DNA of 64,000 bases from an uncultured Saprospiraceae bacterium (GCA_964423575.1 CAYRFF010000008.1:10669-74668), one strand, 5' to 3'. Positions 2-59,216 are shown, counted from the stretch's first letter. The notes: a model not told the origin generated them from the letters alone. Program-made: numbers and translations.

Positions 2-1342
2 ATATTTGCAATTATCCTGCTGGTGACCGTCTTCATGGCGTGGCGCAAGTATAAGCAGGTTTATTTCAACATCCATTTAGGTGGAGAGTATGAATTTAAT
101 GGATCGCAGAAGCAATCGCTTAAGAATATGTTCCTCATTGCCTTTGGGCAGAAGAAGATGTTCAAAAGGCTTGTGCCGGCGATATTCCACTTGTTTATCT
201 ATGTTGCTTTTTTGCTTACGCAAATAGAATTGATAGAGATTATCATAGATGGACTCTTTGGTACACACAGATTCTTCCTTCATTACCTATCAGGATTCTA
301 CACCTTTATCCTCAATTTTATAGAAGTACTGTCGCTGCTGGCATTTGTAGCAACATTTATATTTCTCTATCGAAGAAATATAATGCGACTGGCCCGATTC
401 AAGAAGCCCGAAATGAAGGGCTGGCCTACACTTGACGGGAATCTGATTCTCTTTGGTGAGCTTGCTCTTATCATAGGAATTGCGAGCATGAATGGGGCTG
501 ATGTTGTTTTACAACAAATGGGACATAGTGGATATCCGGAGACGGGAACATTAGCTGTGAGTAGTTGGCTTGGGCCAATGCTGTTTGGTGGACTGGAAAC
601 CGGAACGCTGATTGCAATAGAAAGATTTGGATGGTGGTTGCATATACTTGTAGTGTTTGGTTTCCTAAACTATCTTCCATATTCCAAGCACTTGCATATT
701 TTCCTTGCATTTTTCAACACGTATTACGCGCCGCAGGAATCCCGTGGTCACATGAGTAATATTCCTACAATTACCGCAGAAATTAAATCCATGATGGGAT
801 TTGACGAGGAAGGAGCAGGAGAAGAAATGTCCATGGATGATGATATACCTGAGTTTGGAGTTAAGGATGTGATGGGCTTTAGCTGGAAAACGATTCTAGA
901 CTCATACACTTGTACTGAATGTGGGCGTTGTACAAGCGTGTGTCCTGCTAATATAACCGGAAAGTTGCTTTCTCCGCGTAAAGTCGTGATGGACATCAGA
1001 GACAGAGCTGAAGAAGTAGGTGCCAAAATAAGGTCTGGAAGCGATGAATATAAAATCGATAAAGATAAACCTCTGACTAAGGATAACTTTGATGACGGAA
1101 GATCGTTATTTGATTATATCAGCAGGGAAGAATTGCACGCCTGCACGACATGTAACGCTTGTGTTGAGGCTTGTCCGGTTATGATTAATCCTATGGCGCC
1201 GATACTGGAAATGCGCCGTTATGAAATATTGACAGAATCAGCCGGCCCGCAAGAGTGGGTCCCTATGTTTACATCTATTGAAAATAGCGGCTCTGCATGG
1301 CAGATGCCCAATGAAAGAGACGATTGGATCAAGGATTTATAA
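2..1342 (+). CDS. membrane-anchored (Fe-S)-binding oxidoreductase subunit, probably 5-prime partial
   Basis: Hydrophobic helices followed by two CxxCxxCxxxCP 4Fe-4S motifs (CTECGRCTSVCP, CTTCNACVEACP). The ORF track gives 23..1342, but the frame has no stop back to nt 2. Confidence 0.75.
   Translation: MFAIILLVTVFMAWRKYKQVYFNIHLGGEYEFNGSQKQSLKNMFLIAFGQKKMFKRLVPAIFHLFIYVAFLLTQIELIEIIIDGLFGTHRFFLHYLSGFYTFILNFIEVLSLLAFVATFIFLYRRNIMRLARFKKPEMKGWPTLDGNLILFGELALIIGIASMNGADVVLQQMGHSGYPETGTLAVSSWLGPMLFGGLETGTLIAIERFGWWLHILVVFGFLNYLPYSKHLHIFLAFFNTYYAPQESRGHMSNIPTITAEIKSMMGFDEEGAGEEMSMDDDIPEFGVKDVMGFSWKTILDSYTCTECGRCTSVCPANITGKLLSPRKVVMDIRDRAEEVGAKIRSGSDEYKIDKDKPLTKDNFDDGRSLFDYISREELHACTTCNACVEACPVMINPMAPILEMRRYEILTESAGPQEWVPMFTSIENSGSAWQMPNERDDWIKDL
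214..225 (-). repeat. iterated 12-mer ATTTGYGNAAGC, N=T
   Basis: Exact match. Inside CDS 2..1342, antisense. Confidence 0.8.
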
Positions 1343-1359
1343 AAAGCTATCTTAATTAT

Positions 1360-2808
1360 ATGAAGAATTTCATTTTACTCTTATTTGCAAGTGTATCCAC
1401 TATTGCTATGACAGCCCAGAATTCTTGGGTGCAATTATCCACTGGAGGTGAATTCACTGTAGGACTGGGCTCCGATGGGGGAATTTATACATGGGGATAC
1501 AATGGCTCCGGACAGCTTGGAAATGGAGATTTTGGGAATGATAACGTTGGAGAGCCAACCATGGTGTCCGGAGATAACACATATCGTAATGTTGCAGCAG
1601 GAAACTTTCATGCTGTTGCAGTAGGAACTGATAGTACCTTGTGGGCATGGGGTTATAATGGCTACGGTCAGGCTAACCCGGCTTCTTCAGATGAAATAAT
1701 ACCCAGACTCACTCAAATAGATACAAGCCATAAATGGTTAAAGGTTTATGCCGGTTTTAATATTTCCTTTGCGGTTGATACGCTTAACCAACTATATGTC
1801 TGGGGTAGTAACGCCAAGGGAGAAGCCGGAATTGGAAGCAATAACCTTATGATCAGAGATATTACAAAAGTGCCCGGTGGTGAGAATTTCAAGCAACTGG
1901 ATTGCGGTAAGTATTTTACATTGGCACTTGATTACAAGGGGAATGTATGGGGCTGGGGCGATAACAGTGAAAGTGTTCTTACTAAGTTTAACGAAGCTAT
2001 CGAGAGATTACCTGTAGTAATTGATTCATCGAGAATCTATTCCAAGATAGCTACCAGTTACAATAGTTCTCATGCATTGACAATAGATGGTGACATCTAT
2101 TCCTGGGGAAGTAATGAATATCTTCAATCAGGAGTGTTAGAAGCACCGGAAATTCTCGACACTTTGATGAAAGTGGGGGAGAACTCCGCTATTCCTTACC
2201 GTTTTACTGATATTACCTGCGGAGGGATTCAGTGTTTTGCAGCCGAGGGATCTTTTGGCACTTTATACAGTTGGGGAACCAACAATGTCTGGCGATTTGT
2301 CAATGGTGAATACAAGTCAGATACAGTTATAATCGCTGACTCCAAAGCTGATGCTTATGATATGCCGATAGCATCAAAGGGACTAGATGATGGAGTGAAT
2401 ATATTCGGCGGTCATATACTTTTCTTCGGTAAAGGCTCAGACAGGACAACATATTGTGGTGTGGGACCCAACCACGTAGGCCAGATTGGTACCGGAGAAG
2501 ATAGAAGCAAATTAACTGCTATTACTTGTGGATTTGGAGTTATCACTTCAATGAAGAACTTATATGATATGTTGGTATCCGTTAAAGTATATCCCAATCC
2601 CGCCTCAGATTATCTGATTGTTGACGGGAGCGAGAGTGTAATCAATGAATTGCGCATAGTGAATATGCAAGGGCAGACTGTGCATCAGGAGTACTTCAGT
2701 CAAAGCCATATCAGGTTGGATTTGGCACACTTGAACTCCGGCATTTATTATGTCCAATCTTATTTTAAAGATGGAAAAAGAGCTTATTCCAAGATTATCA
2801 TCCAGTAA
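1360..2808 (+). CDS. RCC1-repeat secreted protein with T9SS C-terminal sorting domain
   Basis: Signal peptide MKNFILLLFASVSTIAMTAQ begins at the internal ATG 1360. About 7 RCC1-like repeats are visible (WGYNGSGQLGNG, WGYNGYGQ, WGSNAKGEAGIG, WGWGDNSES, YSWGSNEYLQSG, YSWGTNN). C-terminus VKVYPNPASDYLIVDG...GIYYVQ is T9SS CTD-like. Confidence 0.8.
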   Translation: MKNFILLLFASVSTIAMTAQNSWVQLSTGGEFTVGLGSDGGIYTWGYNGSGQLGNGDFGNDNVGEPTMVSGDNTYRNVAAGNFHAVAVGTDSTLWAWGYNGYGQANPASSDEIIPRLTQIDTSHKWLKVYAGFNISFAVDTLNQLYVWGSNAKGEAGIGSNNLMIRDITKVPGGENFKQLDCGKYFTLALDYKGNVWGWGDNSESVLTKFNEAIERLPVVIDSSRIYSKIATSYNSSHALTIDGDIYSWGSNEYLQSGVLEAPEILDTLMKVGENSAIPYRFTDITCGGIQCFAAEGSFGTLYSWGTNNVWRFVNGEYKSDTVIIADSKADAYDMPIASKGLDDGVNIFGGHILFFGKGSDRTTYCGVGPNHVGQIGTGEDRSKLTAITCGFGVITSMKNLYDMLVSVKVYPNPASDYLIVDGSESVINELRIVNMQGQTVHQEYFSQSHIRLDLAHLNSGIYYVQSYFKDGKRAYSKIIIQ

Positions 2809-2840
2809 AGAAATTAAGAACTAGTAGAATAATTATAAAT

Positions 2841-3662
2841 ATGAATTCAGAAGATAATACAGTACAGAAGCAGAAAATTGAAGTTCCTATCATGGCCGAC
2901 TTGCATGCACAAGGCCAATCACCGGAAATATTGTTTTGGGTAGGATGTGCAGGGAGTTTTGATTCCAGAGCACAGAAAATAACCCATGCTTTTGTGAAAA
3001 TATTAACCAACCTCGGAATAGATTATGCAATTCTGGGCAAGGAAGAAAGTTGTACAGGGGATCCGGCAAGAAGAGCCGGAAATGAATTTGTATTCCAGAT
3101 GATGGCTTTACAGAATATTCAGGTAATGAATATGTACAATGTAAAGAAAATAGTTACTACTTGCCCTCATGGATTCAATATAATTAAGAATGAATATCCG
3201 GATTTAGGAGGGAATTACGAAGTGATGCACCACACGCAGTTCTTACAATCACTGATTAAAGACGGACGTTTGAAACTTGAAAATAACGACGTTTTCAAAA
3301 ACACCAAGATTACTTATCACGACTCATGTTATATCGGCAGAGTAAACGGAGAATACGAGGCACCAAGGGACATTCTGGAACAATTGGATGGAATTATTGT
3401 TGAAATGGATAGAAACAGGGAGAATGCCCTGTGTTGTGGAGCCGGAGGAGCACAATTCTTTAAGGAGGAAGAACCAGGAGATAGAAGAGTGAGTGAAGAA
3501 AGATCTGAAGAAATTGCAGGAACCGGCGCGCAGATTGTAGCGGCCAATTGCCCGTTCTGTATTACCATGCTCGAGGATGGATTAAAATCAGTGGACAAAA
3601 CCGGAAAAATAGTACTCTACGATCTCGCTGAATTAATTGTTGAAAAGAATAATTGGAAATAA
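2841..3662 (+). CDS. (Fe-S)-binding protein with cysteine-rich CCG domains (HdrB/GlpC-like partner subunit)
   Basis: CCG-type motifs are present (VGCAGSFD, TTCPHGFN, DSCY, LCCGAGG, ANCPFC). Size and composition fit the soluble partner of the upstream membrane Fe-S protein. Confidence 0.75.
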   Translation: MNSEDNTVQKQKIEVPIMADLHAQGQSPEILFWVGCAGSFDSRAQKITHAFVKILTNLGIDYAILGKEESCTGDPARRAGNEFVFQMMALQNIQVMNMYNVKKIVTTCPHGFNIIKNEYPDLGGNYEVMHHTQFLQSLIKDGRLKLENNDVFKNTKITYHDSCYIGRVNGEYEAPRDILEQLDGIIVEMDRNRENALCCGAGGAQFFKEEEPGDRRVSEERSEEIAGTGAQIVAANCPFCITMLEDGLKSVDKTGKIVLYDLAELIVEKNNWK

Positions 3663-5631: not shown

Positions 5632-5643
5632 GCTTCCGCAAAT
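5632..5643 (-). repeat. iterated 12-mer ATTTGYGNAAGC, N=G
   Basis: Exact match. Intergenic, about 35 nt past the stop of 5680..7134, same sense. Confidence 0.8.
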
Positions 5644-5679: not shown

Positions 5680-7134
5680 CTATGAATAAATGGAAGAGCC
5701 TTCCTTCAGTTCCTCAATTTTTTCTTTAACCCATTGCACATCAGCAATACCATCCGATTTTTCCAATTCATCTTCAAGTTGTTTTATTTTATCGATATCG
5801 CCCGGAATAACGTCTGCAAGTTTCTTCACAAAACTGGTGAGGTTGATATAATTCTTTCTCCTTTCCTCAGTCATTTTTGTTTTATTCCTGTTGAGAAAGG
5901 TCCTGAAACTATCTATAAATGAATAGAGAGGACCTATTTCTTTTAATTCGTAGTAAGTACCCAGTAACAAAGCCTTAGCTTGCAGGGAATAACTCATATC
6001 ACTAAATTCTACTTGAGAAAGGAGAACAACAACCTCGTCATAGTCCTTTTTGTAGTAATGCATTCTTGCTTTATTGAAGTTTACGACATTCTCTCTATAT
6101 GCCTCATTAAGATATTGAGAATAATTATTAATAAAATTATCAACCCAATCAAATTGATTTAAGCGTAGTCCTATTAAAACAACGTTTCGAAATGTAGAGT
6201 GCGTAATCTCGTCATTTAAAAATATAATCCTGTCCTTAATGGAAGATTTATATAAGTCAAATAATTCGTTTTGGTATTTAAGATTACCTCTATTTAATTG
6301 TCTAATACAGAAGTTTAAGGCAGCGTTGTACAAGTCTCGTCCTTCATCTTGTGGAAAAATATTAATGTTACTCATAATCCCTTCCTTTACTTGTTGGAAG
6401 ATTTCTTCATTATAGGGATCAGAAGCTAGCTTCACTATAAGGAAATATAATCTAATGTGAGGTTCATCTTCATAACCATGTTCTTCAATATGCTTAAGAA
6501 TTTCTTCTAGAAATAAGATATTATATTCATGCTCAGCAATATTCTTTTGAGACAAAATAGTTGAGTAAAAACGAAGTTTCTCTGCAAAATAAAACTTATC
6601 CAGATGGCTTATGATTTTCTCAACATTCAGTTTTTCCATCCTCTTGATTTCATACCCTTCTAAATCATAAAGCTCTTTTTCAATTGTGTATTGATTGTAA
6701 TAATATTCTGAGGATCTATCAATTGCTCTTTTAGACTGGGTTCTCGCTGTTTTGATAGCTTGATTTTCCATGACTTTCAAGCGATTAGAAGAAATGCTAC
6801 TTAATAATAAAGTGGCTTTATTTAGTGGTTTAGAATTAAGAGCTTCGATGATTAAGAACTCTTCCACTAGTCTTAGAGAATCGGAAAAATATTTGCGTAA
6901 GCGAGCATCAACATAATCTTCATTTTCATGAATCAATTCCCAAACAGATTCTTTATCGGGCCAGAGTTCTTTTTCAGTATTAGATTTAATTAAATCCGTT
7001 AATAACACAAACAGCTGAGTAATCTGTTCATTGACATTGAAATAGGGCGATTTAATGAATTTTTCAAGTCGGTTCAGTGTCCAGACATCGAAACTTTGTA
7101 GAACTGCGACCAACTTTGTTGAATAGACGGACAT
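5680..7134 (-). CDS. hypothetical all-helical protein
   Basis: 484-aa ORF with no signal peptide and no catalytic motifs. The C-terminal half is TPR-like (MHYYKKDYDEVVVLL, AKALLLGTYYEL). Confidence 0.6.
   Translation of the reverse strand: MSVYSTKLVAVLQSFDVWTLNRLEKFIKSPYFNVNEQITQLFVLLTDLIKSNTEKELWPDKESVWELIHENEDYVDARLRKYFSDSLRLVEEFLIIEALNSKPLNKATLLLSSISSNRLKVMENQAIKTARTQSKRAIDRSSEYYYNQYTIEKELYDLEGYEIKRMEKLNVEKIISHLDKFYFAEKLRFYSTILSQKNIAEHEYNILFLEEILKHIEEHGYEDEPHIRLYFLIVKLASDPYNEEIFQQVKEGIMSNINIFPQDEGRDLYNAALNFCIRQLNRGNLKYQNELFDLYKSSIKDRIIFLNDEITHSTFRNVVLIGLRLNQFDWVDNFINNYSQYLNEAYRENVVNFNKARMHYYKKDYDEVVVLLSQVEFSDMSYSLQAKALLLGTYYELKEIGPLYSFIDSFRTFLNRNKTKMTEERRKNYINLTSFVKKLADVIPGDIDKIKQLEDELEKSDGIADVQWVKEKIEELKEGSSIYS
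6891..6902 (+). repeat. iterated 12-mer ATTTGYGNAAGC, N=T
   Basis: Exact match. Inside CDS 5680..7134, antisense. Confidence 0.8.
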
Positions 7135-9789: not shown

Positions 9790-9795
9790 TTTTTA

Positions 9796-9807
9796 GCTTT
9801 CGCAAAT
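9796..9807 (-). repeat. iterated 12-mer ATTTGYGNAAGC, N=A
   Basis: Exact match. Starts 1 nt after the TGA of 9809..10663, same sense, between convergent genes. Confidence 0.8.
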
Positions 9808-9808
9808 T

Positions 9809-12615: not shown

Positions 12616-12627
12616 ATTTGCGAAAGC
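12616..12627 (+). repeat. iterated 12-mer ATTTGYGNAAGC, N=A
   Basis: Exact match. Intergenic, about 210 nt upstream of folE. Confidence 0.8.
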
Positions 12628-17120: not shown

Positions 17121-19646
17121 ATGAAATTGCCAAACATTAATTTGAAGTATTTTAGTATGCTCCCAGATAAATTAAAACAACTTGGTCTTATTGCATTTTT
17201 TATTTGCGCAAGCTTAACAATACACGCCCAATTGCATGGAGTCGTCACTGAGAACGATGGAAAGGCGTTGGCCTATGCATCTATTTATGTGCAGGGAACG
17301 ACGATAGGAACAACTAGTAATGAACAAGGAGAATACTTCCTCAATCTTGAGGATGGCAATTATGTCATAGTATGTGAATACTTAGGATACGGGGCTGTAG
17401 AAAAACAGATTTCCATAAAAAGCAATGAAAGATCTGTTCTCAATTTTCATCTTACATCATCTGCGATTCACTTGGAGATGTTAAACATCTCAGCGGATAG
17501 GGAAGATCCTGCTTACGCTGTAATCAGGCAAGCTCAAGCTCATAGAAAAGACAATCTCAAGGTTGACCTGCCGCAGAGTTGCGAAATGTATATGAAAGGA
17601 AATATTGCACTAGGCGAGTCACCCGATAAGTTTATGGGTGTAAGCATGGACGAATTGCGAGCTTCAATTGATTCCATGGGGACTAATATTATGTACTTAT
17701 CTGAGACGGTTTCTACTTTATATAGAGCAGAAACCGGCCTTCAGGAAGTTATACATTCCAGTCGAGTAAGCGGTAGTTCTATGTATTCTTTTAATCGGGG
17801 TGCTATGGTTGAATACTCCGTTTATGAACGTAGCTTGAATTCTCCTCTTGGCAGTCTTATTAACCCTATCGGTCCTTCAGCTTTCACTTATTATGAGTTT
17901 AGACTTTTGTCAAAAGACATAACGAACAAGGGAACAGTCAACACTATTTCCGTTAAAAGTAAGAATACATCCGAGCCTACTATTGACGGAATAATCTATA
18001 TATCCGAAGAAGCATGGCAAGTTGACGCATTTGATTTTACAACTACAGGTAAACGCCTCAAGCAAGAGATTCTCGATACTGTGCGCTTACAACAAGAATA
18101 TATAAAGGCGGGGGACAGGAAAGTGCTATTTAAGAATCGAATGGATATGCAGATAGGTTTACTTGGTTTTACTGTTGATGGAGTGTTTTTATCCGTGTAT
18201 ACTGATTATGAGTTTGGAGAAGCAGCAGTTTCCGGTATTAGTAAAAGACAAGCAGTAACATTTCAGGATTCGTCAGAGACGCGGAATACGGAATACTGGG
18301 ATGGTGTCAGACCTGTGAAGCTCAGTGAACTGGAATCCAAAGATTATCATGTTAAAGATTCTATCTCGATAGTTATCAACTCACCGGAGTACAGAGATTC
18401 TATCGAAAGGATTTCCAATAAATATAATTTAATGAATCTTCTCACGGGCTATACATTCAGAAAGTCGGCCTATGGATTCCGTGCCAGTCATGATGGACTG
18501 GGAGTGGGTTTAAGCTTTGATCCTGTAAGGGGTTTTGCACTTCCGTTTGACCTGAGTTTTACTTTCAAAAATAGATTTACTATCAACGGCGGAATAAGTT
18601 ATGGTTTCTCAGATGAGCTTATCAGATATAATGCAGGAGTTTCCTATAAAATCAATCCCAATAGAAATCAAAGTATAAGTTTTGCTACCGGAACAAAGAT
18701 TGCCGATGTAAACTCTATTGAACCATTTACGCGAGGAATAAATGAATTTATGAGTTTATTATTTCATCAAAATCTTATAAAATATCATGGACAGGAATAT
18801 TATAGGTTGGATTATCAACAGCGGATTATACCTGGACTTAATCTGAAAGCACATAGTGAATATGTAATCAGGAATCATCTGCAGAACACTACTGAATATA
18901 GTTTCTTATATAAGAAAAGATTATACAAAGACAACATGATAGATATGGGTGAAAACCTTAATCATGGAGGGCTGGATAACAGATTGTTTAAAGTGACATT
19001 TAATGTAGATTACTTTCCCGGCACAAGATTTACAAAATATCCGAGTGGTGAAATCCGCACTTATCAGCCAAAGTACAATAAATTCTCCCTAACTTATGAT
19101 ATGGGAATTCCTGTATTTAATACAAGTGTGGAATACCAGAAATTTAAGCTAGCTTATAGCAGTAGAATAAGAGGTGGGTTTGGCATGGATGGAAGCCTCC
19201 ATGCTTCCGTCGACTTTTTTCTGGGAAGACGCAATCCGGGAATTCAGGATTTTATATGGATGAATGATAACGGAAGTATATATACCAATGCATTTGACAT
19301 AAGTCAACGATTCCTGGGAATGGATACGTATGAGTATTTTACCGATCAATATGCAATGCAATTGCATTACTACCATAATTTTGAAGGAATGATACTGAAT
19401 AAGGTACCGGGCCTCAATAAGCTTGGCTGGAATTTAACTGCTAAATACTCAGCTGTTTATATGCCGGAAATGCCGCTATATATGGAAGTTGGACTTGGTA
19501 TTGATAGAATAGGCTGGAAATTATTCCGACCGTTACGATTTGATGTTGTTCTTCCTTCTAAAGATTTTAAAATTGAGAAATTACGTTATGTTATAGGGAT
19601 GAAAATAGATCTTGGCGCTTTAAGTCGAGGAGAAATATCATTTTAA
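17121..19646 (+). CDS. carboxypeptidase-regulatory-like domain protein (DUF5686-like), probable outer-membrane protein
   Basis: Signal peptide and CarbopepD_reg-like N-terminus (GVVTENDGKALAYASIYVQGTTIGTTSNEQGEYFLNL). 841 aa, beta-rich. Confidence 0.7.
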   Translation: MKLPNINLKYFSMLPDKLKQLGLIAFFICASLTIHAQLHGVVTENDGKALAYASIYVQGTTIGTTSNEQGEYFLNLEDGNYVIVCEYLGYGAVEKQISIKSNERSVLNFHLTSSAIHLEMLNISADREDPAYAVIRQAQAHRKDNLKVDLPQSCEMYMKGNIALGESPDKFMGVSMDELRASIDSMGTNIMYLSETVSTLYRAETGLQEVIHSSRVSGSSMYSFNRGAMVEYSVYERSLNSPLGSLINPIGPSAFTYYEFRLLSKDITNKGTVNTISVKSKNTSEPTIDGIIYISEEAWQVDAFDFTTTGKRLKQEILDTVRLQQEYIKAGDRKVLFKNRMDMQIGLLGFTVDGVFLSVYTDYEFGEAAVSGISKRQAVTFQDSSETRNTEYWDGVRPVKLSELESKDYHVKDSISIVINSPEYRDSIERISNKYNLMNLLTGYTFRKSAYGFRASHDGLGVGLSFDPVRGFALPFDLSFTFKNRFTINGGISYGFSDELIRYNAGVSYKINPNRNQSISFATGTKIADVNSIEPFTRGINEFMSLLFHQNLIKYHGQEYYRLDYQQRIIPGLNLKAHSEYVIRNHLQNTTEYSFLYKKRLYKDNMIDMGENLNHGGLDNRLFKVTFNVDYFPGTRFTKYPSGEIRTYQPKYNKFSLTYDMGIPVFNTSVEYQKFKLAYSSRIRGGFGMDGSLHASVDFFLGRRNPGIQDFIWMNDNGSIYTNAFDISQRFLGMDTYEYFTDQYAMQLHYYHNFEGMILNKVPGLNKLGWNLTAKYSAVYMPEMPLYMEVGLGIDRIGWKLFRPLRFDVVLPSKDFKIEKLRYVIGMKIDLGALSRGEISF
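17202..17213 (+). repeat. iterated 12-mer ATTTGYGNAAGC, N=C
   Basis: Exact match. Inside the signal-peptide codons of 17121..19646, sense. Confidence 0.8.
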
Positions 19647-20836: not shown

Positions 20837-21280
20837 ATGATCACCTATTTTACAAAAATTACATTTGGTAGTCCGGCTTATGATGAGGCGCTTAAACTTC
20901 GTTATAAGCTCCTTAGAGAACCACTTGAGATGAGCTACGAAATAGATGATATAGTGCAGGAAACGGATCAAATGCACTTCGGTTTATATAGACTATCTAC
21001 AGATACTTTACTTGCCTGCGCCAGCATTATTCCTGAAGGGGCTCGGTGGAAAATGCGCCAGGTTGCTGTTTCTCCCGAGTATCAAACCAAAGGCTATGGG
21101 CGTTTATTAGTTCTGAAACTGGAACAATTTGCGAAAGCTTCTAAAGCTAAAGAAATATATTGCCACGCACGTATGAGTGTGGACAATTTCTATGAAAAGT
21201 TACAATATCATAAGATAGGAGAAATCTTCAGTGAAGTTACCATCCCACATATTAAAATGGTTAAGAAAATAGACGAATAG
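20837..21280 (+). CDS. GNAT family N-acetyltransferase
   Basis: RQVAVSPEYQTKGYGRLLV acetyl-CoA binding motif. 147 aa. Confidence 0.85.
   Translation: MITYFTKITFGSPAYDEALKLRYKLLREPLEMSYEIDDIVQETDQMHFGLYRLSTDTLLACASIIPEGARWKMRQVAVSPEYQTKGYGRLLVLKLEQFAKASKAKEIYCHARMSVDNFYEKLQYHKIGEIFSEVTIPHIKMVKKIDE
21127..21138 (+). repeat. iterated 12-mer ATTTGYGNAAGC, N=A
   Basis: Exact match. Inside the GNAT CDS, sense, read as TTT GCG AAA GCT (FAKA). Confidence 0.8.
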
Positions 21281-33868: not shown

Positions 33869-34564
33869 ATGAATTCAGACAAGCACATACTTTATGTTGA
33901 AGATGATGAAACCCTGGCCTTTGTCACCAAAGACAATCTGGAGAACCACGGCTATAAAGTGACGCACTATGGCAACGGCATGGATGCCCTTGTAGGTTTT
34001 AAGAGATATTCCTTTGACTTATGTGTTTTGGATATTATGCTTCCTCAAATGGACGGTTTTACCCTTGCAGAGAAAATCCGTAAAGAAGATGAGCAGATAC
34101 CTATCCTTTTCCTATCAGCCAAGTCGATGAATGAGGATAGAATTAAAGGCTTTAAAATCGGTGGTGATGATTACATAACCAAACCCTTTTCAATTGAAGA
34201 GCTAATCCTGAAAATAGAAGTATTTCTTAAGCGAAACCTCATTAACAAGGAAGAAGAATTGTCTTTTTATTCAATAGGAAAGTATGAGTTTCACTATGAT
34301 GCACTGACTCTCGTATACAACGATAATTCGCGCTCCCTGACTCAACGAGAAGCTGACTTGCTGCAATACTTTGCGAGGAATCAAAACAAGATTTTAAAAC
34401 GTCCCGATATCCTTATTACAGTCTGGGGTGAAGATGATTACTTTCTAGGTAGATCCCTCGATGTCTTTATATCAAGGTTGAGGAAATATCTTAAAGATGA
34501 TTCAGATATAGAGATAGAAAATATTCATGGAGTAGGCTTTAGACTGAATTCCAGAACAGACTAA
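33869..34564 (+). CDS. OmpR/PhoB-type response regulator
   Basis: Receiver domain (ILYVEDDE...LDIMLP...KP) plus a winged-helix C-terminus (LTQREADLL, VWG, VFISRLRKYL, GVGFRL). Confidence 0.92.
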   Translation: MNSDKHILYVEDDETLAFVTKDNLENHGYKVTHYGNGMDALVGFKRYSFDLCVLDIMLPQMDGFTLAEKIRKEDEQIPILFLSAKSMNEDRIKGFKIGGDDYITKPFSIEELILKIEVFLKRNLINKEEELSFYSIGKYEFHYDALTLVYNDNSRSLTQREADLLQYFARNQNKILKRPDILITVWGEDDYFLGRSLDVFISRLRKYLKDDSDIEIENIHGVGFRLNSRTD

Positions 34565-35868
34565 CTGCTCATATTCTTTTCTTGTAGCAACTCGGCTAGT
34601 TCTTCAGGATTTCGGTTTTCATTTACAATACGCATTACTTTATCTTTGTAAACAAGATACTCTTCTATTAAAGTACTATCCATCGGCGCCGGGGCCGGCA
34701 ACTCAAGCCTTAAAGGGTCGACCTGTTCGCCATTCTTCCAGAATCGAAAACAGACGTGTGGACCAGTCGCGAGGCCGGTAGAGCCTACGTAACCGATAAT
34801 TTCACCCTGTTCAACGTGAACACCGGGCTTAATTCCGCTTGCAAATTTACTCATGTGTAAGTATTGAGTTTCATAAACTTTATCATGACGGATTTTTACA
34901 TAGTTTCCATTGCCACGAGTAAATGAAGCATGAGTAACAGTTCCAGAAGCAACTGCCATTATAGGAGTCCCATGACTCGCTGCATAATCAGTTCCTAGAT
35001 GCGGCCTTCGATGTTTAAGGACGGGATGCATTCTGTTCTTGTTGTAGCGGGAAGAGATTCTGTAATATTTTACCGGTGCTTTTAAAAAAGCCTTTTGCAT
35101 AGGAAGACCCTCCAGATTATAATATCCGGGAGAATCTGTCTTGTCGTAATAAATAGCATAGAGATCCTTGCCTCGATGATTCATAAATCCGGCGATGAGT
35201 TTTCCCGTTCCTACTATTTTGTCATCGACATACTCCTCCTCATACCATAATTTATAATTATCTCCTTTCTGTAAATGAAAGAAGTCAACAGTCCAGGCAT
35301 AGGCATTTTCCATCTTACTGATAAGCGAATAATGCGCTCCGCCTTCTTCCATCGATACCCATAGACTGGAGTTGATTTCTCCTTCAATCTTGCGTATCCG
35401 TGTTTCAACTTCACGCTGAACTATTTCAGCACAAGGATCATCTTCAAAGGAATAAACTACATATTTTAAAGCATCGGGTACATATATTAAATAGGAAACA
35501 TCATCACAGCCATTTTTACTAAGGATATGGTATTCTTTTCCGCTTTGTAGCTTTCGCAAATCGAATATAGGGCTGACATTCTTTGATAGCTGATGAATCA
35601 CTCCGTTATCTACGTTGTATTCATGCATAAGTTGCGAGAAAAACTGATTCTTCTGAATGAAACCTGAATGTACATTGTATTCAGCCAGATCAAAGCCATA
35701 GAATAATTGTGTCTCTATACTGTCTTGAGAAGAAACCTCATCGATCAAATCCTCATCATTTTGTAAATTGGACTCGCATGATTCGAGGGTGAGAAGAAGG
35801 AGCAACAAGGGAAGTATTCCGATGAGATAGCTGAATCTTTTACTATTTTGAGGCCTTTTATTATACAC
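34561..35868 (-). CDS. M23 family metallopeptidase
   Basis: HLGTDYAASHGTPI and GSTGLATGPHVCF motifs. N-terminal lipoprotein-like signal. Confidence 0.88.
   Translation of the reverse strand: MYNKRPQNSKRFSYLIGILPLLLLLLTLESCESNLQNDEDLIDEVSSQDSIETQLFYGFDLAEYNVHSGFIQKNQFFSQLMHEYNVDNGVIHQLSKNVSPIFDLRKLQSGKEYHILSKNGCDDVSYLIYVPDALKYVVYSFEDDPCAEIVQREVETRIRKIEGEINSSLWVSMEEGGAHYSLISKMENAYAWTVDFFHLQKGDNYKLWYEEEYVDDKIVGTGKLIAGFMNHRGKDLYAIYYDKTDSPGYYNLEGLPMQKAFLKAPVKYYRISSRYNKNRMHPVLKHRRPHLGTDYAASHGTPIMAVASGTVTHASFTRGNGNYVKIRHDKVYETQYLHMSKFASGIKPGVHVEQGEIIGYVGSTGLATGPHVCFRFWKNGEQVDPLRLELPAPAPMDSTLIEEYLVYKDKVMRIVNENRNPEELAELLQEKNMSS
35550..35561 (-). repeat. iterated 12-mer ATTTGYGNAAGC, N=A
   Basis: Exact match. 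Inside the M23 peptidase CDS, sense (DLRKL frame). Confidence 0.8.
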
Positions 35869-36195: not shown

Positions 36196-37041
36196 GTGGG
36201 ATATGTTTTTAAATCCGGCAAAAAAGTTATAGAAATTGCAAATCCGGAAATATGGGGAATTGTAAATTATACACCTGATTCATTTTATGCAGGAAGTCGT
36301 AGAAAGAATCTGGATTCTGCATTTGCGGAAGCGATAAAACATATAGAAGAAGGAGCAGCAGTTATCGACATAGGGGCAATGTCTTCACGCCCCGGTGCTA
36401 AAATTTCCAATCCTCAAGATGAGATAAATGCATTGGTACCTTTAATTCACAAAATTAAAGCCGCAGAATCCGATGCGGTTATAAGTATAGATACCTTACA
36501 TTCTGAAGTCGCACGTGTATGTATTAACGAAGGAGCCGAAATCATCAATGACGTCACCGGAGGAATGTATGATAATAAAATTCTTGAGGTTGCCGGCAAG
36601 TTGCAAGTACCTATCGTGATTATGCACATGCGTGGTATACCGGAGAATATGCAGCAATTTACGGATTACGATAATCTGCTCAGAGTGTTAATGCTGTATT
36701 TTAAAGACAGAATCACTGCATGTAAAAGGGCGGGCGTCGAAGATATAATTCTCGATCCGGGCTTTGGATTTTCTAAAACAATTGCGCAAAACATGCAGTT
36801 GCTCTCGCATATTCCTATCTTTAAAATCTATGATTACCCGGTCTTAATAGGCGTGTCCAGGAAATCAACTATCTATAGAAGTTTACAGATAGAACCTGAT
36901 GAAGCGCTCAATGGAACAACAGCCTTGCACATGATTGCGTTAGAGAATAAAGCGGACATCCTGAGAGTACACGATGTTAAAGAAGCTAAAGAAGCAGTAA
37001 GCCTGTTCAAGTTATATAAATCATCAATTGCTGAAGAATAG
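36196..37041 (+). CDS. folP: dihydropteroate synthase
   Basis: GIVNYTPDSFY, DIGAMSSRPG, NDVTGG and DPGFGF motifs. GTG start. Confidence 0.9.
   Translation: MGYVFKSGKKVIEIANPEIWGIVNYTPDSFYAGSRRKNLDSAFAEAIKHIEEGAAVIDIGAMSSRPGAKISNPQDEINALVPLIHKIKAAESDAVISIDTLHSEVARVCINEGAEIINDVTGGMYDNKILEVAGKLQVPIVIMHMRGIPENMQQFTDYDNLLRVLMLYFKDRITACKRAGVEDIILDPGFGFSKTIAQNMQLLSHIPIFKIYDYPVLIGVSRKSTIYRSLQIEPDEALNGTTALHMIALENKADILRVHDVKEAKEAVSLFKLYKSSIAEE
36321..36332 (+). repeat. iterated 12-mer ATTTGYGNAAGC, N=G
   Basis: Exact match. Inside folP, sense (FAEA). Confidence 0.8.
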
Positions 37042-42013: not shown

Positions 42014-44401
42014 ATGAACAGAACATTGATATATCCCGATTATAAAAAGGATGATTTACATTTCAGGGATATACTGGCAGAGATAAACAACTATTGCAGA
42101 TCGGATCTCGCAAGAGAAAAGATAAATCTACTCAGACCGCTCAACCACGCTGACACGATACGGCGTTTTCTGCAGCAGACAGAAGAATGCATGAATGCTG
42201 TCACAACTGATCACGCTCCCGATATTGCTGAACTTAATGACATACTTCCTCACATATCATATCTACGCATTAAAAATTACATTTTCCCTGCTGAGGAACT
42301 CTTGGAAATTATCAATTTACTGAGACAAAGAAAAAGCATTGAGCCTTTCATTAAAGATGCTGAATGGGCTCGGACCTTTCCCTTATTGCATGAGTTTTTG
42401 GATGGCGAATTTCCTCCGGGAGAACTGATGAAGTTCATCGATGAAAAATTTGATGAAAAGGGAGAACTGAGAGAAAATGCCTCATCGGAACTGATAAGTA
42501 TTTCCAGGGCTATTAATGCCAAGCAATCTGAAATTGACAGGAGTTTTAAAACTATAGTCAAGAAGTATAGAGATCAGGGAATATTGCATGATACTGAAGA
42601 GTCCATCAGGAATGGGCGGCGGGTTATTACGATCGACTCCAATTATAAAAGACAGATTAGCGGAATATTCCATGATGAATCTGCCTCAGGTAAAACTACA
42701 TTTATCGAACCGGGAGAAATGATTCCCTTGAATAATGAACTCTTCAATCTCTTTAACGAAAGAGAGAAAGAGATTAAGCGTTTGCTTAGACTTACTGCAG
42801 ACAAAATCAGGGACATTTCAGACTTATTACCTGAGTTTCAGAATAAAATGATATGGTATGAAGTTATGTATGCCAAGGCCAAATACGCCTTATCGATTCA
42901 GGCTCGCGTACCTTCTGTCGTTGATGATTCTCAGATTAAAATCGTAAATGGCAGGCATCCTATCCTATATCGGAAAAATATGCAGGAGTATAAGAATACA
43001 GTTCCTTTCACTCTCGAGTTGATGGGGGAACAGCGAGTTCTACTCGTCTCAGGCCCCAATGCCGGGGGGAAATCTATTCTTCTCAAAGCAGTGGGCCTAC
43101 TTCAGATGATGGTGCAAGCGGGAATTCCCGTACCTGTGGACATGTCTTCAGAATTTGGGATATTCACCAAGTTCTTTATCGATATCGGCGATCAGCAGTC
43201 CGTAGAGGATGATTTATCGACCTACAGTTCTCATCTGACTAATATGAACATTGCCTTAAAAAAGTCCGATAAAAGAAGCCTTATCCTCTTTGATGAATTT
43301 GGTACCGGAACAGACCCTCAGATGGGTGGTGCCATTGCACAGGCAATATTGCAACAACTGATGCGTAGAAATGTGTATGGCCTTATAACAACGCACTACG
43401 GAAACCTGAAAGGATTTGCTGCAAAGCATAAAAACATTGTAAACGGCGCCTTGCTTTTTAACGATAAAGAACTTGCACCGACCTACAGATTAAAAATAGG
43501 GGAACCTGGATCTTCATACGCTTACGAGATTGCCAGAAATATTGGCTTGCCTGAACACTTAATCAAGCAGGCTAGGAAAATTGCCGGCGTGCAAGTCAGT
43601 GATATAGATGATCTTTTGCATAAGTTGCAGCAAGAAAGTCGCCGCATCGAAGAGAAAACCCTGGAACTTGAAAATAGAGAGAAACTGCTTGATAACTTAA
43701 GTAATACCTATAATCATCTTCAGGAAGAGCTCGAGATCAGACGTAAACGGATGAAAATGGAGGCAAAAGAAAATGCCTTACAATATCTGCTTACGCAAAA
43801 GAAGGAATTAAGCGAACTCATAAATAAAGTCCGGGAAGAAGAGAATATACGACAAGCAGAAGAATTACAAAAGAGAATCGCAGAAGAACAAGTTAAGCTT
43901 GTTGAAGATATCCGCACTATGGAAGACCAGGTTCTGCAATCAGATGAGAGCAGCGGCACAATAGAGGAAGGCAGTTATGTTAAAATGCGGAAAGGAGAAG
44001 GCCTTACGGGACAAGTTGAGTGGATTAGGGGAAAAACGGCGATGGTCATCTTTGGTAATCTTAGAATGGAAGTACGGCTTAAAGATCTTAAACTTATCCC
44101 CAAGACAATTGATATCCGCAAGGGAACTTCAGGACATGTTTATGAGAAAGCTACCAATATTCAGTCAAAGCTGGATATCAGAGGATTAGATAAAAGAGAA
44201 GCAATGGATTTACTGGAAGCATTTCTCGATAAAGCGATTATTGCAGATCTACTGTCGGTTGAAATCATCCATGGAAAAGGGACAGGAGTTCTGAGAGAAT
44301 TGACAAGGGAAATAAGTCAGCAATACAAAGATATCAAGGAAATTGAACATCCTCCGGCTGAATATGGAGGAATCGGTAAAACGATTATAACTTTTGGCTA
44401 A
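42014..44401 (+). CDS. mutS2: endonuclease MutS2
   Basis: Walker A GPNAGGKS, DEFGTGTDP, and C-terminal Smr domain (LDIRGL...IIHGKGTGVLR). Confidence 0.92.
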   Translation: MNRTLIYPDYKKDDLHFRDILAEINNYCRSDLAREKINLLRPLNHADTIRRFLQQTEECMNAVTTDHAPDIAELNDILPHISYLRIKNYIFPAEELLEIINLLRQRKSIEPFIKDAEWARTFPLLHEFLDGEFPPGELMKFIDEKFDEKGELRENASSELISISRAINAKQSEIDRSFKTIVKKYRDQGILHDTEESIRNGRRVITIDSNYKRQISGIFHDESASGKTTFIEPGEMIPLNNELFNLFNEREKEIKRLLRLTADKIRDISDLLPEFQNKMIWYEVMYAKAKYALSIQARVPSVVDDSQIKIVNGRHPILYRKNMQEYKNTVPFTLELMGEQRVLLVSGPNAGGKSILLKAVGLLQMMVQAGIPVPVDMSSEFGIFTKFFIDIGDQQSVEDDLSTYSSHLTNMNIALKKSDKRSLILFDEFGTGTDPQMGGAIAQAILQQLMRRNVYGLITTHYGNLKGFAAKHKNIVNGALLFNDKELAPTYRLKIGEPGSSYAYEIARNIGLPEHLIKQARKIAGVQVSDIDDLLHKLQQESRRIEEKTLELENREKLLDNLSNTYNHLQEELEIRRKRMKMEAKENALQYLLTQKKELSELINKVREEENIRQAEELQKRIAEEQVKLVEDIRTMEDQVLQSDESSGTIEEGSYVKMRKGEGLTGQVEWIRGKTAMVIFGNLRMEVRLKDLKLIPKTIDIRKGTSGHVYEKATNIQSKLDIRGLDKREAMDLLEAFLDKAIIADLLSVEIIHGKGTGVLRELTREISQQYKDIKEIEHPPAEYGGIGKTIITFG

Positions 44402-44956: not shown

Positions 44957-45997
44957 TTGATTTCTATGGAAGCTATCATGCCGGACATCAACGAACTGAA
45001 AAATATCCTCAACAAGCCACAGGATGTAGTCATACTATCACATCGAAATCCGGACGGAGACGCTCTGGGTTCATCAATAGGCTTGTCGCGAATTCTTCAG
45101 AAAATGCATCATTCTGTAACTGTTGTGTTGCCCAGTGAGTATCCTCTGGTCTTCAGCTGGATGCCGGAAGTCAAGGATATTATCGTATTTGATGTGGATT
45201 CAGCTGCAAGTATAGCAGCAGTAAAAAAGGCAAGTGTAATAGTCTGTGTAGACTTTAACGGACTTGACAGGATTGATAAACTCGGTGAAGAAGTGAATCA
45301 GGTCAAGGATAGCAAGAAAGTAGTACTCATCGATCATCATCTGGATCCGGAGCCCTTTGCGGACATAGTTTATAGTGATCCTTCAGCAAGTTCAACTTGT
45401 CAATTGATATATAAGCTTGCGCAAATGTGCGACTGGACGCGACATATCGACCCGGAAACCGCTGCTTGTCTTTACACTGGCATTCTTACTGATACAGGCT
45501 CATTCCACCACGGAACAACTGAAAGTGCCTTTGAGGTATCAGCTAAGCTTATAGGCCATGGTGTAGACGGAGAAGAAGTGCATGATCTGATTTTCAGAAA
45601 TCAGACTGAAAAGCAATTGAGGATTCTAGGCCATTGCCTGGCTAATCGCATGGAAATTATTCCTGCAATACGCACAGGTATAATCTGGCTTAACAGGCAG
45701 GATTATGAGAAATTTGCTATTGACAGAGGAGATACTGAAGGGATTGTCAATCATCTGATGACGATGAAAAACGTCGATGTAGCAGCCTTTATCACTGAAC
45801 AACCGTCCATTGTAAAGCTTTCGCTCCGCTCTAAGGGCGATATTTCTGTACAGGAACTTGCGCGTGATCATTTTAACGGTGGAGGACATAAAAACGCAGC
45901 AGGAGGCTCTATGTACGCCTCACTGAGTGCTGTTCTGGAAAAATTCAAGAGAGTAGTACCATTCTATATACCTACGATTAAATCATTCAGGTTGTAA
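44957..45997 (+). CDS. DHH-family phosphoesterase (NrnA-like oligoribonuclease/pAp phosphatase)
   Basis: HRNPDGDALGS, DHH (IDHHLD) and GGGHKNAAGG motifs. The start could be an ATG a few codons downstream of the TTG. Confidence 0.85.
   Translation: MISMEAIMPDINELKNILNKPQDVVILSHRNPDGDALGSSIGLSRILQKMHHSVTVVLPSEYPLVFSWMPEVKDIIVFDVDSAASIAAVKKASVIVCVDFNGLDRIDKLGEEVNQVKDSKKVVLIDHHLDPEPFADIVYSDPSASSTCQLIYKLAQMCDWTRHIDPETAACLYTGILTDTGSFHHGTTESAFEVSAKLIGHGVDGEEVHDLIFRNQTEKQLRILGHCLANRMEIIPAIRTGIIWLNRQDYEKFAIDRGDTEGIVNHLMTMKNVDVAAFITEQPSIVKLSLRSKGDISVQELARDHFNGGGHKNAAGGSMYASLSAVLEKFKRVVPFYIPTIKSFRL
45415..45426 (-). repeat. iterated 12-mer ATTTGYGNAAGC, N=C
   Basis: Exact match. Inside the DHH phosphoesterase CDS, antisense. 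Confidence 0.8.
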
Positions 45998-46008: not shown

Positions 46009-46839
46009 ATGAAGAGTTTTTACATGCTGTATATAGTATCGGCTGTGTTATTTATTTCAGCTTGCGCAAATGTAGAGGATAATAAACTCTTTCATAAGGA
46101 TCACGTTTTAACTTTAAGCAGGAGTGTATTAGATGCTGATATTCAAGGCGATAGGGTAGTGTACTTTAATTATTTAACTGACAGCAATAGCAAGCAAAAT
46201 AAAAGCCTTGCATATTTACTTCCGGGAGAGGATAATATCAAATCAAGCAATAACCCGTTGATTTATGCACTGGGTATCGGGCAAGCAGGAGATACTATAA
46301 GAATAGAATCAGCTAAAAAATCAAATGCTGACTTAGATTCGAATCTTCCTTTTAGCATCGCAATCGAGGAAATAGTCAGCAAACACACATTTGCCGAAAG
46401 GCAGATAATCAAAGAATATGGCTTTCTTCCGGATACACTACTTACTGATATTGAGAAGAAAGAGATACTGGATTACGCGCGTATTGCAATACATGACAAA
46501 ATACAACATTGTACTCACCTGGGAGAGGATGTTTATCTGTGCACTATACGAGAGGGAATGGATAACGTGGCAGGGACAGACGAACTTGTCGCTATATACT
46601 ATTCTGCGATTTTACAGGATGAATTTAAAGAGGTGGACGGGAACTATAATACGGAAAAACCATTTATTATACAAGCAGGCACCAGTGAAGTAATTGCTGC
46701 GTGGAGAAGAGCAATACCATATATTTATCGAGGTTCAAGAGTACTATTGATAGTTCCTACTGAACAAGCTTATGGCGATAAAACCTATGGGAAAGTACCT
46801 GCTAACAGTGACCTCTTGTTTTTAATTGACTTATATTAA
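46009..46839 (+). CDS. FKBP-type peptidyl-prolyl isomerase lipoprotein
   Basis: Lipobox-like LFISACAN. C-terminal FKBP domain (VIAAWRRAIPYIYRGSRVLLIVP..AYGDK...PANSDLLFLIDL). Confidence 0.75.
   Translation: MKSFYMLYIVSAVLFISACANVEDNKLFHKDHVLTLSRSVLDADIQGDRVVYFNYLTDSNSKQNKSLAYLLPGEDNIKSSNNPLIYALGIGQAGDTIRIESAKKSNADLDSNLPFSIAIEEIVSKHTFAERQIIKEYGFLPDTLLTDIEKKEILDYARIAIHDKIQHCTHLGEDVYLCTIREGMDNVAGTDELVAIYYSAILQDEFKEVDGNYNTEKPFIIQAGTSEVIAAWRRAIPYIYRGSRVLLIVPTEQAYGDKTYGKVPANSDLLFLIDLY
46060..46071 (-). repeat. iterated 12-mer ATTTGYGNAAGC, N=C
   Basis: Exact match. Inside the FKBP lipoprotein signal-peptide codons, antisense. Confidence 0.8.
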
Positions 46840-51575: not shown

Positions 51576-51600
51576 TTTAATTCCCCTTTAAATAATCAGG

Positions 51601-51763: not shown

Positions 51764-51775
51764 GCTTACGCAAAT
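51764..51775 (-). repeat. iterated 12-mer ATTTGYGNAAGC, N=T
   Basis: Exact match. In the non-coding gap, first of three clustered copies. Confidence 0.8.
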
Positions 51776-51799
51776 GTAATGCTCTTAAAATTTCTTTTA

Positions 51800-51811
51800 G
51801 CTTCCACAAAT
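51800..51811 (-). repeat. iterated 12-mer ATTTGYGNAAGC, GTG variant, N=G
   Basis: Exact match to the Y=T form, in the non-coding gap. Confidence 0.75.
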
Positions 51812-51889
51812 GGATAATCAGTTCTTCACCTTATTCTAGCTTAAATAAATAATTATGGTTGGCTTACGTAGCTGATATATTTTCTTAAT

Positions 51890-51901
51890 GCTTCCACAAA
51901 T
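51890..51901 (-). repeat. iterated 12-mer ATTTGYGNAAGC, GTG variant, N=G
   Basis: Exact match to the Y=T form, in the non-coding gap. Confidence 0.75.
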
Positions 51902-52290: not shown

Positions 52291-52935
52291 ATGGATTTTA
52301 AGGATTTCTGGGATAAGCTTGTAAACTCCAAGGGAGCAAAAGATTTAAAGGATTTAGCTGAAATGACTGAAGACCAGATAGAGTCTATCGGTAAGAAGAT
52401 TCTTGAAAAGTCTAAATCTGCCGGAGATAAAACCATGGATTTTATCGATACTGAAGGCAGCAAGCTATTTGAGAAAGCAAAGAAACGCATAAAAGACATC
52501 ACTGAAAGAGGCACTGAAGAAATCAATGAATTTTTCAGAGAAAAAGACTCTGAAGAGGTTGATTTAGATGAGATTTTCGGCAAAGAGGATGTTGATATCA
52601 ACCCTGGTGAAGGCGAAGCAAAAGCCAAGTCTTCCAGTAAAAGAAGCAGTGATAAAAAGGGGGATTTTATTGATAAAATCCTAGCAAAAGTTGAGAAAAG
52701 TATCGATTCAGCCGAAAGGATAATAGATGATCGGACCAATCTGGAGGCTATTAAAGATATCAACCTTATTCCGGATGATTTTATTGAAAAAGCAAGACGA
52801 TTTGCAGACACTACACTTACTCGTGGAAAAAGTCAAAAGAAATCATCCACAGATCAGGACATAGCCGGTTTTACAGACCATGATGGCGATGGAGATCCGC
52901 TTATAGATGATGCACTAGTTGATGAAGATGTATAA
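52291..52935 (+). CDS. highly charged K/E/D-rich, probably disordered protein
   Basis: 214 aa with no hydrophobic core segments. The antisense ORF 52251..52811 is S/L low-complexity, as expected for the mirror image of this gene. Confidence 0.6.
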   Translation: MDFKDFWDKLVNSKGAKDLKDLAEMTEDQIESIGKKILEKSKSAGDKTMDFIDTEGSKLFEKAKKRIKDITERGTEEINEFFREKDSEEVDLDEIFGKEDVDINPGEGEAKAKSSSKRSSDKKGDFIDKILAKVEKSIDSAERIIDDRTNLEAIKDINLIPDDFIEKARRFADTTLTRGKSQKKSSTDQDIAGFTDHDGDGDPLIDDALVDEDV

Positions 52936-52954: not shown

Positions 52955-52966
52955 ATTTGCGTAAGC
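52955..52966 (+). repeat. iterated 12-mer ATTTGYGNAAGC, N=T
   Basis: Exact match. 19 nt after the stop of 52291..52935, same sense, between convergent genes. Confidence 0.8.
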
Positions 52967-53485: not shown

Positions 53486-53523
53486 GAGAAATCTTCCACA
53501 AACGCTTTTGCGGAAGATTTCTC
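53486..53523 (-). terminator. 17-bp stem hairpin downstream of the TPR gene, built from two inverted degenerate copies of the iterated motif
   Basis: GAGAAATCTTCCACAAA-CGCT-TTTGCGGAAGATTTCTC. The single mismatch becomes a G-U pair on the minus-strand RNA. The hairpin is followed on the minus strand by ATTTCT. Confidence 0.5.
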
Positions 53524-59094: not shown

Positions 59095-59111
59095 AGGAGG
59101 AAATCTGTAAT

Positions 59112-59123
59112 ATTTGCGAAAGC
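59112..59123 (+). repeat. iterated 12-mer ATTTGYGNAAGC, N=A
   Basis: Exact match. 17 nt after the stop of the porT-like gene, same sense. Confidence 0.8.
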
Positions 59124-59204
59124 ATAAAAACAATCAATAATTCAAGAGTATTTATTATGATTGTTAACTCGACTCCGGAGATGGTCAGTTGAATGACTGT
59201 TTAC

Positions 59205-59216
59205 GCTTACGCAAAT
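59205..59216 (-). repeat. iterated 12-mer ATTTGYGNAAGC, N=T
   Basis: Exact match. Intergenic, inverted partner of 59112..59123. Confidence 0.8.

Follow-up and report, generated by a model that had tools for sequence, protein, structure and literature searches.

To our knowledge, uptake sequences have been demonstrated in two proteobacterial families only, both of which use type IV pili, and the DNA-uptake tags of Neisseria and Haemophilus are the only case we know of in which a pattern of dispersed exact words is tied to a function. Here, we describe a 12-nt word, ATTTGCGNAAGC (position 8 free), that is scattered through a 64,000-nt stretch of DNA from an uncultured Saprospiraceae bacterium (GCA_964423575.1, CAYRFF010000008.1:10669-74668; hereafter, the window), and compare it with these and other described systems. 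The word had been pointed out in a first-pass annotation of the window, which likened it to an uptake sequence.

The DNA uptake sequence (DUS) of Neisseriaceae (the 12-mer AT-GCCGTCTGAA, with the minor pilin ComP) is, like the word in the window, 12 nt long, non-palindromic and exact; it lies on both strands and within genes, is over-represented in intergenic DNA and at gene ends, has occasional inverted copies near gene 3′ ends, and is lineage-specific with dialect-like shifts. However, the two sequences are unrelated, the phylum is different, the density in the window is about 3–6 times lower, and close inverted pairs forming terminators are not the rule here; the role of pilus and ComP would fall to the candidate importer, a TonB-type transporter and its DUF5689 lid. 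Similarly, the uptake signal sequence (USS) of Pasteurellaceae (a 9-mer core, AAGTGCGGT or ACAAGCGGT, with AT-rich flanks) shares with our word a short exact core with an A/T-rich flank, the use of all reading frames, a preference for tolerant positions, and many orthologous copies common to species. The sequences are again unrelated, however, one central position is free in the window word, and receptor and machinery presumably differ. Since ATTTGCGNAAGC is unrelated to either signal in sequence, it is an analogue of DUS and USS at most and not a member of these classes. Cyanobacterial HIP1 (GCGATCGC) is likewise a hyper-abundant, exact short word of unsettled function that lies in coding and non-coding DNA and is maintained at the DNA level; yet HIP1 is a palindromic 8-mer and much denser, whereas the window word has 12 nt, lacks such symmetry and shows strong enrichment in intergenic DNA.

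Within the Bacteroidota, RA0C_RS04915/04920 of Riemerella anatipestifer are essential for natural transformation (PMC8459023), and DdbC/DdbD of Bacteroides thetaiotaomicron constitute an outer-membrane DNA transporter and its DNA-binding lid (PMC12478041). In these systems, as close to the window, a CarboxypepD_reg+Plug gene adjoins a DUF5689 gene, although the DUF5689 protein of our lineage has in addition an LTD domain and a type IX secretion system (T9SS) sorting tail. No sequence specificity has been reported for the Riemerella/Bacteroides importer. Riemerella columbina, another member of the phylum, prefers its own DNA in uptake competition, with no motif defined in that work (PMC7965970), and our literature search returned no uptake sequence described for Bacteroidota.

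Exact copies of the word are over-represented in the window

When T was also allowed at position 6 (ATTTGYGNAAGC), the pattern was found 19 times in the window, 8 times on the + and 11 times on the − strand (Table 1). The expected count was 0.06 in dinucleotide shuffles (mean), 0.06 in order-3 Markov simulations and 0.19 (maximum 2) in order-5 simulations, both trained on the window; across the lineage described below, the frequency amounts to hundreds of times expectation. Every one of the 19 coordinates, strands and sequences in the first-pass annotation proved exact. The G+C content, eyeballed there at about 40%, was computed as 38.4%.

The excess concerns perfect copies. With C fixed at position 6, the window holds 17 exact, 5 one-mismatch and 13 two-mismatch matches, as against 1, 51 and 544 in 1.42 Mb from other Bacteroidota, or ~0.05, ~2.3 and ~24 when this control is scaled to 64 kb. 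Exact copies are hence raised by two to three orders of magnitude, and two-mismatch copies remain at or below background, a dominance of perfect copies as in DUS/USS-type signals. Because position 8 is free, the word was invisible to plain k-mer counts and emerged from a gapped-word scan only. Its over-representation is real, robust and unexplained by any ordinary feature.

The word is confined to one narrow lineage

Related loci were retrieved via homologues of the 822-aa T9SS protein encoded in the window, for which an exact-sequence look-up had given no match. The closest named relatives are Saprospiraceae/Saprospirales assemblies whose GyrA is at most 72% identical to that of the window, among the matches listed. 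Three closer species could be compared: species A, that of the window, recovered with 99–100% identical GyrA from several Logan runs and one NCBI record; species B (SRR8272552; GyrA 83% identical to the window); and species C (GCA_964436125.1; 81%). We counted 21 copies in the about 74.6 kb read of species A, 6 in 38.4 kb of species B and 10 in 44.6 kb of species C. The control comprised 80 gyrA loci of other Bacteroidota (1,423,786 nt; GyrA 60–70% identical, among the matches listed), where ATTTGYGNAAGC was present twice, that is, at chance level. Comparison of sister with distant species, a check put forward in the first-pass annotation, thereby separated the two groups: the word is dense at a GyrA identity of at least 81% and at chance level at 60–70%. 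Among the loci compared, it is restricted to one narrow lineage.

A de novo gapped-word scan with a 4-copy cut-off ranked the word first in three of the lineage's four 22-kb loci (L001, L006 and L209) and joint first in the fourth (L008). With a single copy, locus L210 fell below the cut-off, and in L211 the word was outranked by tandem-repeat words; nothing comparable was seen in the loci of other lineages. Moreover, usage of position 8 differs between species: G occupies it in 8 of the 10 copies of species C and 5 of the 19 of species A (Fisher P = 0.016), a dialect-like shift at the species level. Restriction to one lineage and dialects are again traits of DUS/USS-type signals.

Beyond this lineage, viral contigs scanned with the word plus TWAA gave single chance matches only, and a metagenome scan for two direct copies 15–45 nt apart recovered apparently unrelated tandem arrays only, with no dispersed copies. 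A widespread tandem array of metagenome contigs has a 41-nt unit, TTGCGGAAGCTCCGCAAGCACCAAAAAGTTTGTTTTGCCAT, of which one hairpin arm (CATTTGCGGAAGCT) contains the full 12-mer with matching flanking C and T. It occurs in contigs L214, L219, L229, L231, L236, L244, L270, L279, L281, L305, L308, L321, L322 and others, and in L214, L229 and L236 it directly follows the 3′ end of a gene for a TonB-dependent receptor; no dispersed copies of the word were seen in the array flanks. Other words repeated 7–12 times were TCTCGATCTAACCG in L153 and GCGATTCCACCG in L178, both gyrA loci of other lineages, and AATGAGCAATG in L211. The last may stem from an SprB/PKD repeat gene (L211 1-2139), and the former two may be tandem or repeat-domain sequences; both are unrelated to the motif.

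The word is short and asymmetric and shares no flanks

Position 8 varies freely among the 19 copies (A in 6, G in 5, T in 5, C in 3), and C precedes the word in 10 and T follows it in 11 of them; the earlier counts of these bases were correct. For 46 non-redundant copies from the window and the related loci, information content is ~0 outside positions −2 to +17, and within that range we observed a weak C before the word, T (never C) after it, and then an A-rich stretch. No extended flanks are common to the copies, be it in the window or in the set of 46, and because nothing is shared beyond the word, it is not a fragment of a longer repeat. This speaks against one longer dispersed repeat family, one of the outcomes named at the outset as damaging to the uptake idea; a repeat of the repetitive extragenic palindrome (REP) or miniature inverted-repeat transposable element (MITE) type was rejected on the absence of a shared longer unit and on the ten copies that lie within genes.

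The core of the word, GCGNAAGC, could fold in single-stranded DNA or RNA into a mini-hairpin whose loop is GNRA-like, a fold to which the first-pass annotation had drawn attention, and might then serve replication, transcript 3′ ends or transcript stabilisation. The mini-hairpin d(GCGAAAGC) is of unusual stability, it is exactly the free position on which a loop of this type imposes no constraint, and in some copies the stem could be lengthened by TTT and the A-rich stretch that comes after the word. Four copies also lie past a stop codon and read in the same sense as the gene, at a measured 1–36 nt (previously put at about 1–35 nt). However, change is tolerated most at position 6, where C is replaced by T in four cases and by A in two; the A variants break the stem, and the complementary strand is unable to form the loop. 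Orientation is random with respect to transcription, with genic copies split into five sense and five antisense and five of the nine intergenic copies either running antisense to the adjacent gene or not lying downstream of it. Nor is there a U-tract or an Rfam match. We therefore regard this explanation as very unlikely.

An intrinsic terminator was likewise rejected as the identity of the word, as single copies form stems of at most 2–5 bp with no T-run. The window has 17 terminator-like sites as compared to 13.3 in shuffles, which is no excess, and no copy falls within any of the sites listed; the sole terminator-like motif site is a hairpin of degenerate copies (53486-53523). Rfam and tRNA scans of the window found no Rfam family and no tRNA.

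Copies lie within and between genes on either strand and in all frames

Non-coding DNA makes up 7.9% of the window and yet holds 9 of the 19 copies (P = 5.5e-6). The other ten are in coding sequences, where they use all six frames, three of them sharing the frame TTT GCG RAA GC; in all this, the coding/intergenic split, the even division between sense and antisense, and the three-copy frame agree with what had been read by eye. The absence of strand bias, the use of several frames and the intergenic excess are what DUS/USS-type signals display. We also asked how often the word is used where the protein sequence would permit it. Of 13 window peptides that could carry it, ten are encoded by the word, as against 0.22 expected from window codon usage. 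Given this result and the use of all six frames, the signal sits in DNA and not in protein, and a protein-level motif was rejected. A Chi- or KOPS-type oriented word was rejected as well, the 8 + and 11 − copies lying in a window of mostly positive GC skew.

The nine intergenic copies have no consistent orientation towards genes. Three face a downstream start codon, at 81–212 nt (5632−, 12616+ and 59112+), two lie in convergent gaps, three are on the wrong strand in one long spacer, and one is antisense. This distribution bears on the suggestion that the intergenic subset represents an extended form of the −7 element (TAnnTTTG) of Bacteroidota sigma-A promoters. The word does contain the TTTG tetranucleotide, a few copies are preceded by TAc, and the three copies named above do face a gene start. 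By contrast, there is no T-A preference at −4/−3 across the 46 non-redundant copies, the conserved part runs 8 nt past TTTG, and copies are mostly not upstream of genes: only 3 of 19 are both intergenic and facing a gene start, six of the nine intergenic copies are not, and half of the ten genic copies are antisense. Other Bacteroidota use the same promoter type, and the word is at chance level in 80 of their loci. A sigma-70 promoter scan of the window was at shuffle level. The promoter reading fails for most copies because TA is missing at the required distance and only three of nine face starts, and we consider it extremely unlikely as an account of the word.

Positions are not even along genes. 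As many as 17 of the 19 copies lie within ~515 nt of a start codon, and all ten coding copies fall in the first 470 nt of their gene (P about 8e-5), although this bias is weaker once the copies of species B and C are added (Kolmogorov–Smirnov P = 0.04). It may reflect tolerant N-terminal regions or a role near gene starts; the copies at codons 18 and 28 sit where a signal peptide would be expected. Such placement would suit an abundant, sequence-specific cytoplasmic DNA-binding protein (nucleoid-associated, chromosome-organising or a global regulator) with sites selected near gene starts. An asymmetric word with one free central position is what recognition by a monomeric protein might look like, and some copies occupy the same place in three species. 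On the other hand, degeneracy is the norm for sites bound by regulators and nucleoid proteins, and here two-mismatch copies number 13 as against about 24 per 64 kb. Copies also occur in convergent 3′ gaps (9796, 52955) and, in species C, deep within genes (gyrA codon 397; codon 502 of 562 of an acyltransferase gene), and within the same spacer their orientation and position vary between species. We know of no precedent for one perfect 12-mer binding site per 3–4 genes. Taken together, we judge a binding protein to be an unlikely explanation.

The 715-nt spacer 51576-52290, between two + strand genes, accommodates three − strand copies plus partial copies. It contains no annotated feature, no Rfam match and no tRNA, and its equivalent in species C, about 1.2 kb long, has zero copies.

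Copies are conserved within species but gained and lost between species

A strain that differs from the window by 5.5% retains all 72 motif positions, as compared to 23 changes at 360 positions in the flanks (within 30 nt). Between the species, which are ~65–75% identical at the nucleotide level, one copy persists in all three and two persist in two of three, the third species there having 3–4 mismatches; several others are species-specific, and in shared spacers both position and orientation of the copies vary. The middle of the window has no cross-species comparison, because a search with the TamB homologue yielded no species B or C orthologues. Copies are thus conserved within species, and gained and lost between them.

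One gain came at a price. The gyrA copy of species C (L211 11189-11200), specific to this species, reads GCT TCC GCA AAT (A-S-A-N), and the final residue is Thr in all nine other GyrA sequences compared. It is the Thr-to-Asn change that completes the word, so that the gain cost a change at a conserved GyrA residue.

Turnover of this kind could also result from a drive other than uptake, namely sequence-specific mismatch or nicking repair, biased gene conversion, or the footprint or target of a selfish element. Sequence-specific conversion is one idea raised for cyanobacterial HIP1. The copies are exact and independent of frame and strand, they arise at near-matches (3–5 mismatches in sister species), one gain carried the costly amino-acid change in GyrA, and the codon test reveals a pull on the DNA itself; for these DNA-level data, the fit is as good as that of uptake. 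However, we know of no 12-nt-specific repair system of such a kind, and no transposase, nuclease or repeat structure accompanies the copies. The intergenic excess is expected of any drive checked by selection and does not separate the two. We consider a non-uptake drive improbable.

Inventory of copies

All copies in the window are compiled in Table 1. The near copies noted earlier, one at 43789 and those of the hairpin 53486-53523, were confirmed. The inverted pairs reported near gene ends amount to one pair, 81 nt apart, and the hairpin, whose arms are degenerate inverted motif cores (CTTCCACAAA / TTTGCGGAAG). A similar hairpin exists in species B (L210 about 13990-14030), and that of species C is unrelated and G+C-rich. 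In the spacer of species C that corresponds to the one between the outer-membrane protein (OMP) and PIG-L genes (window copies 59112 and 59205), we found one antisense copy.

Table 1 Copies of the 12-nt word, one-mismatch copies and the hairpin of degenerate copies in the window (species as defined in the text).
Feature	Position	Strand	Context
Exact copy ATTTGCGTAAGC	214..225	-	Antisense in LutB-like Fer4 gene; retained in all of species A, B and C
Exact copy, intergenic	5632..5643	-	36 nt past stop of 5680-7134(-); 81 nt upstream of 4693-5550(-)
Exact copy	6891..6902	+	Antisense in hypothetical gene 5680-7134(-); retained in species C, with 3 mismatches in species B
Exact copy, convergent intergenic gap	9796..9807	-	1 nt past stop of gene 9809-10663(-)
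Exact copy, divergent intergenic region	12616..12627	+	212 nt upstream of folE
Exact copy	17202..17213	+	Sense, frame 0, codon 28 of CarboxypepD_reg/DUF5686 gene
Exact copy	21127..21138	+	Sense, frame 2 (QFAKA), GNAT gene
Exact copy	27718..27729	-	Sense, frame 2 (KFAEA), M1 peptidase gene
Exact copy	30505..30516	+	Antisense, NUDIX gene, codon 23
Exact copy	35550..35561	-	Sense, frame 1, M23 peptidase gene
Exact copy	36321..36332	+	Sense, frame 2 (AFAEA), folP
Exact copy	45415..45426	-	Antisense, DHH/DHHA1 gene
Exact copy	46060..46071	-	Antisense, FKBP gene, codon 18
Exact copy	51764..51775	-	First of three same-strand copies in 715-nt spacer 51576-52290
Position-6 T variant ATTTGTGGAAGC	51800..51811	-	Spacer 51576-52290
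Position-6 T variant ATTTGTGGAAGC	51890..51901	-	Spacer 51576-52290
Exact copy, convergent intergenic gap	52955..52966	+	19 nt past stop of gene 52291-52935(+)
Exact copy	59112..59123	+	17 nt past stop of OMP gene; species B copy at equivalent place
Exact copy	59205..59216	-	Inverted relative to 59112, 81-nt gap; 50 nt upstream of PIG-L gene
One-mismatch copy ATTTGAGGAAGC	34039..34050	-	
One-mismatch copy TTTTGCGTAAGC	43789..43800	-	
One-mismatch copy ATTTGAGAAAGC	52467..52478	+	
38-nt hairpin, two inverted degenerate cores (GTTTGTGGAAGA / TTTTGCGGAAGA)	53486..53523	.	40 nt past stop of TPR gene

Two gene-level observations were made along the way. The fructosamine-kinase-like gene next to the copy at 9796 encodes 284 aa in the window and 295 aa in a 96% relative (L001 12456-13343; window 9776-9809); as the latter gene is 11 codons longer, the copy matching window 9796 falls inside its 3′ end. 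In addition, prfB (release factor 2; 46854-47942, +) has a canonical programmed +1 frameshift, with ATG at 46854 and the site TAT CTT TGA C at 46907-46916, and therefore the 331-aa open reading frame from 46947 represents the downstream frame only.

Candidate uptake machinery is encoded upstream of the window

Contig L333 is identical to the window from L333:7161 (window:1) and extends it upstream. There, 1.5–6.7 kb from the window, lie two adjacent genes on the same strand (L333 412-5627). The product of the first (918 aa) has CarboxypepD_reg and Plug domains, as found at the N terminus of TonB-dependent transporters, and that of the second (783 aa) combines LTD and DUF5689 with a weak OB-fold match and a T9SS sorting tail. 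The pair shares the architecture of RA0C_RS04915/04920 and DdbC/DdbD; judged from domains and gene adjacency alone, it would be orthologous to them. Species B possesses a second protein with a strong DUF5689 match (L210 1-1655).

Another candidate lies within the window. Riemerella cannot be transformed without a certain helix-hairpin-helix protein, and the gene at 14906-16960 (−) encodes a 684-aa protein with a ComEA-like helix-hairpin-helix at residues 56–120 (PDB 8dss ComEA, E = 0.006). Its N-terminal hydrophobic stretch resembles, by eye, a signal peptide, and its 560-aa C-terminal part ends in RLRF, typical of outer-membrane barrels; the gene is divergent from the CarboxypepD_reg+DUF5686 gene 17121-19646 (+). 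We rejected the assignment of these two neighbours as the Riemerella transformation genes, as the upstream Plug+DUF5689 pair is the better architectural match.

A self-DNA uptake tag as the favoured interpretation

By analogy with DUS and USS, the word may be a self-DNA uptake tag of one narrow Saprospiraceae-like lineage, spread by transformation, a reading that we favour and to which we give about an even chance of being right. The signature described in the first-pass annotation, namely the lack of strand and frame bias, genic copies and presence at gene ends, was recovered. To this can be added the intergenic excess, the near-perfect copies, lineage specificity, the position-8 dialect and the codon bias at the DNA level. 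In DUS and USS systems, it is biased uptake with subsequent homologous recombination that raises the word to a high copy number.

Mechanistically, a surface or outer-membrane DNA receptor would favour double-stranded DNA bearing the word, and the candidate for this role is the lid (DUF5689) that belongs to the TonB-type DNA transporter described above. Because of this preference, tagged fragments of dead relatives would be imported more often and recombined into the chromosome. The resulting uptake bias, a form of molecular drive, would then fix new perfect copies wherever the sequence tolerates them, irrespective of strand and frame: between genes, at gene ends and where a protein is under weak constraint. 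We infer, again by analogy, that the organism is competent, that its uptake is biased towards the word and that the DUF5689 protein serves as receptor. The fuller proposition, that this is the first uptake signal outside the Proteobacteria, read by a TonB-type transporter with a DUF5689 lid rather than by a pilin, recent, and confined to one genus-level lineage with species dialects at position 8, is more tentative, and we lean somewhat towards doubting it.

Several points weigh against an uptake tag. Classical DUS and USS have a density of about 1 per kb, and that of the window word is lower, at 1 per 3.4–6.4 kb. Uptake drive does not predict the confinement of coding copies to the first 470 nt of genes, unless N-terminal regions are simply more tolerant. 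In the ~150 kb of the lineage read, no comEC, comF, dprA or DUF1343 was seen, too little DNA to inform either way, and no type IV pilus genes or ComP were seen there. The lineage itself is uncultured and known only from metagenome assemblies. Finally, the transporter/DUF5689 pair is widespread in Bacteroidota and serves DNA catabolism in Bacteroides, a genus that is not known to be competent; DdbD-type lids are described as non-specific DNA binders (PMC12478041).

Implications

The word may be the first such tag in Bacteroidota. If this is true, the tagging of self-DNA evolves repeatedly and can rest on a completely different import machine. An uncultured lineage would then be recognisable, from sequence alone, as one that recombines by transformation, and the specificity of the newly described Bacteroidota DNA importer would become directly testable.

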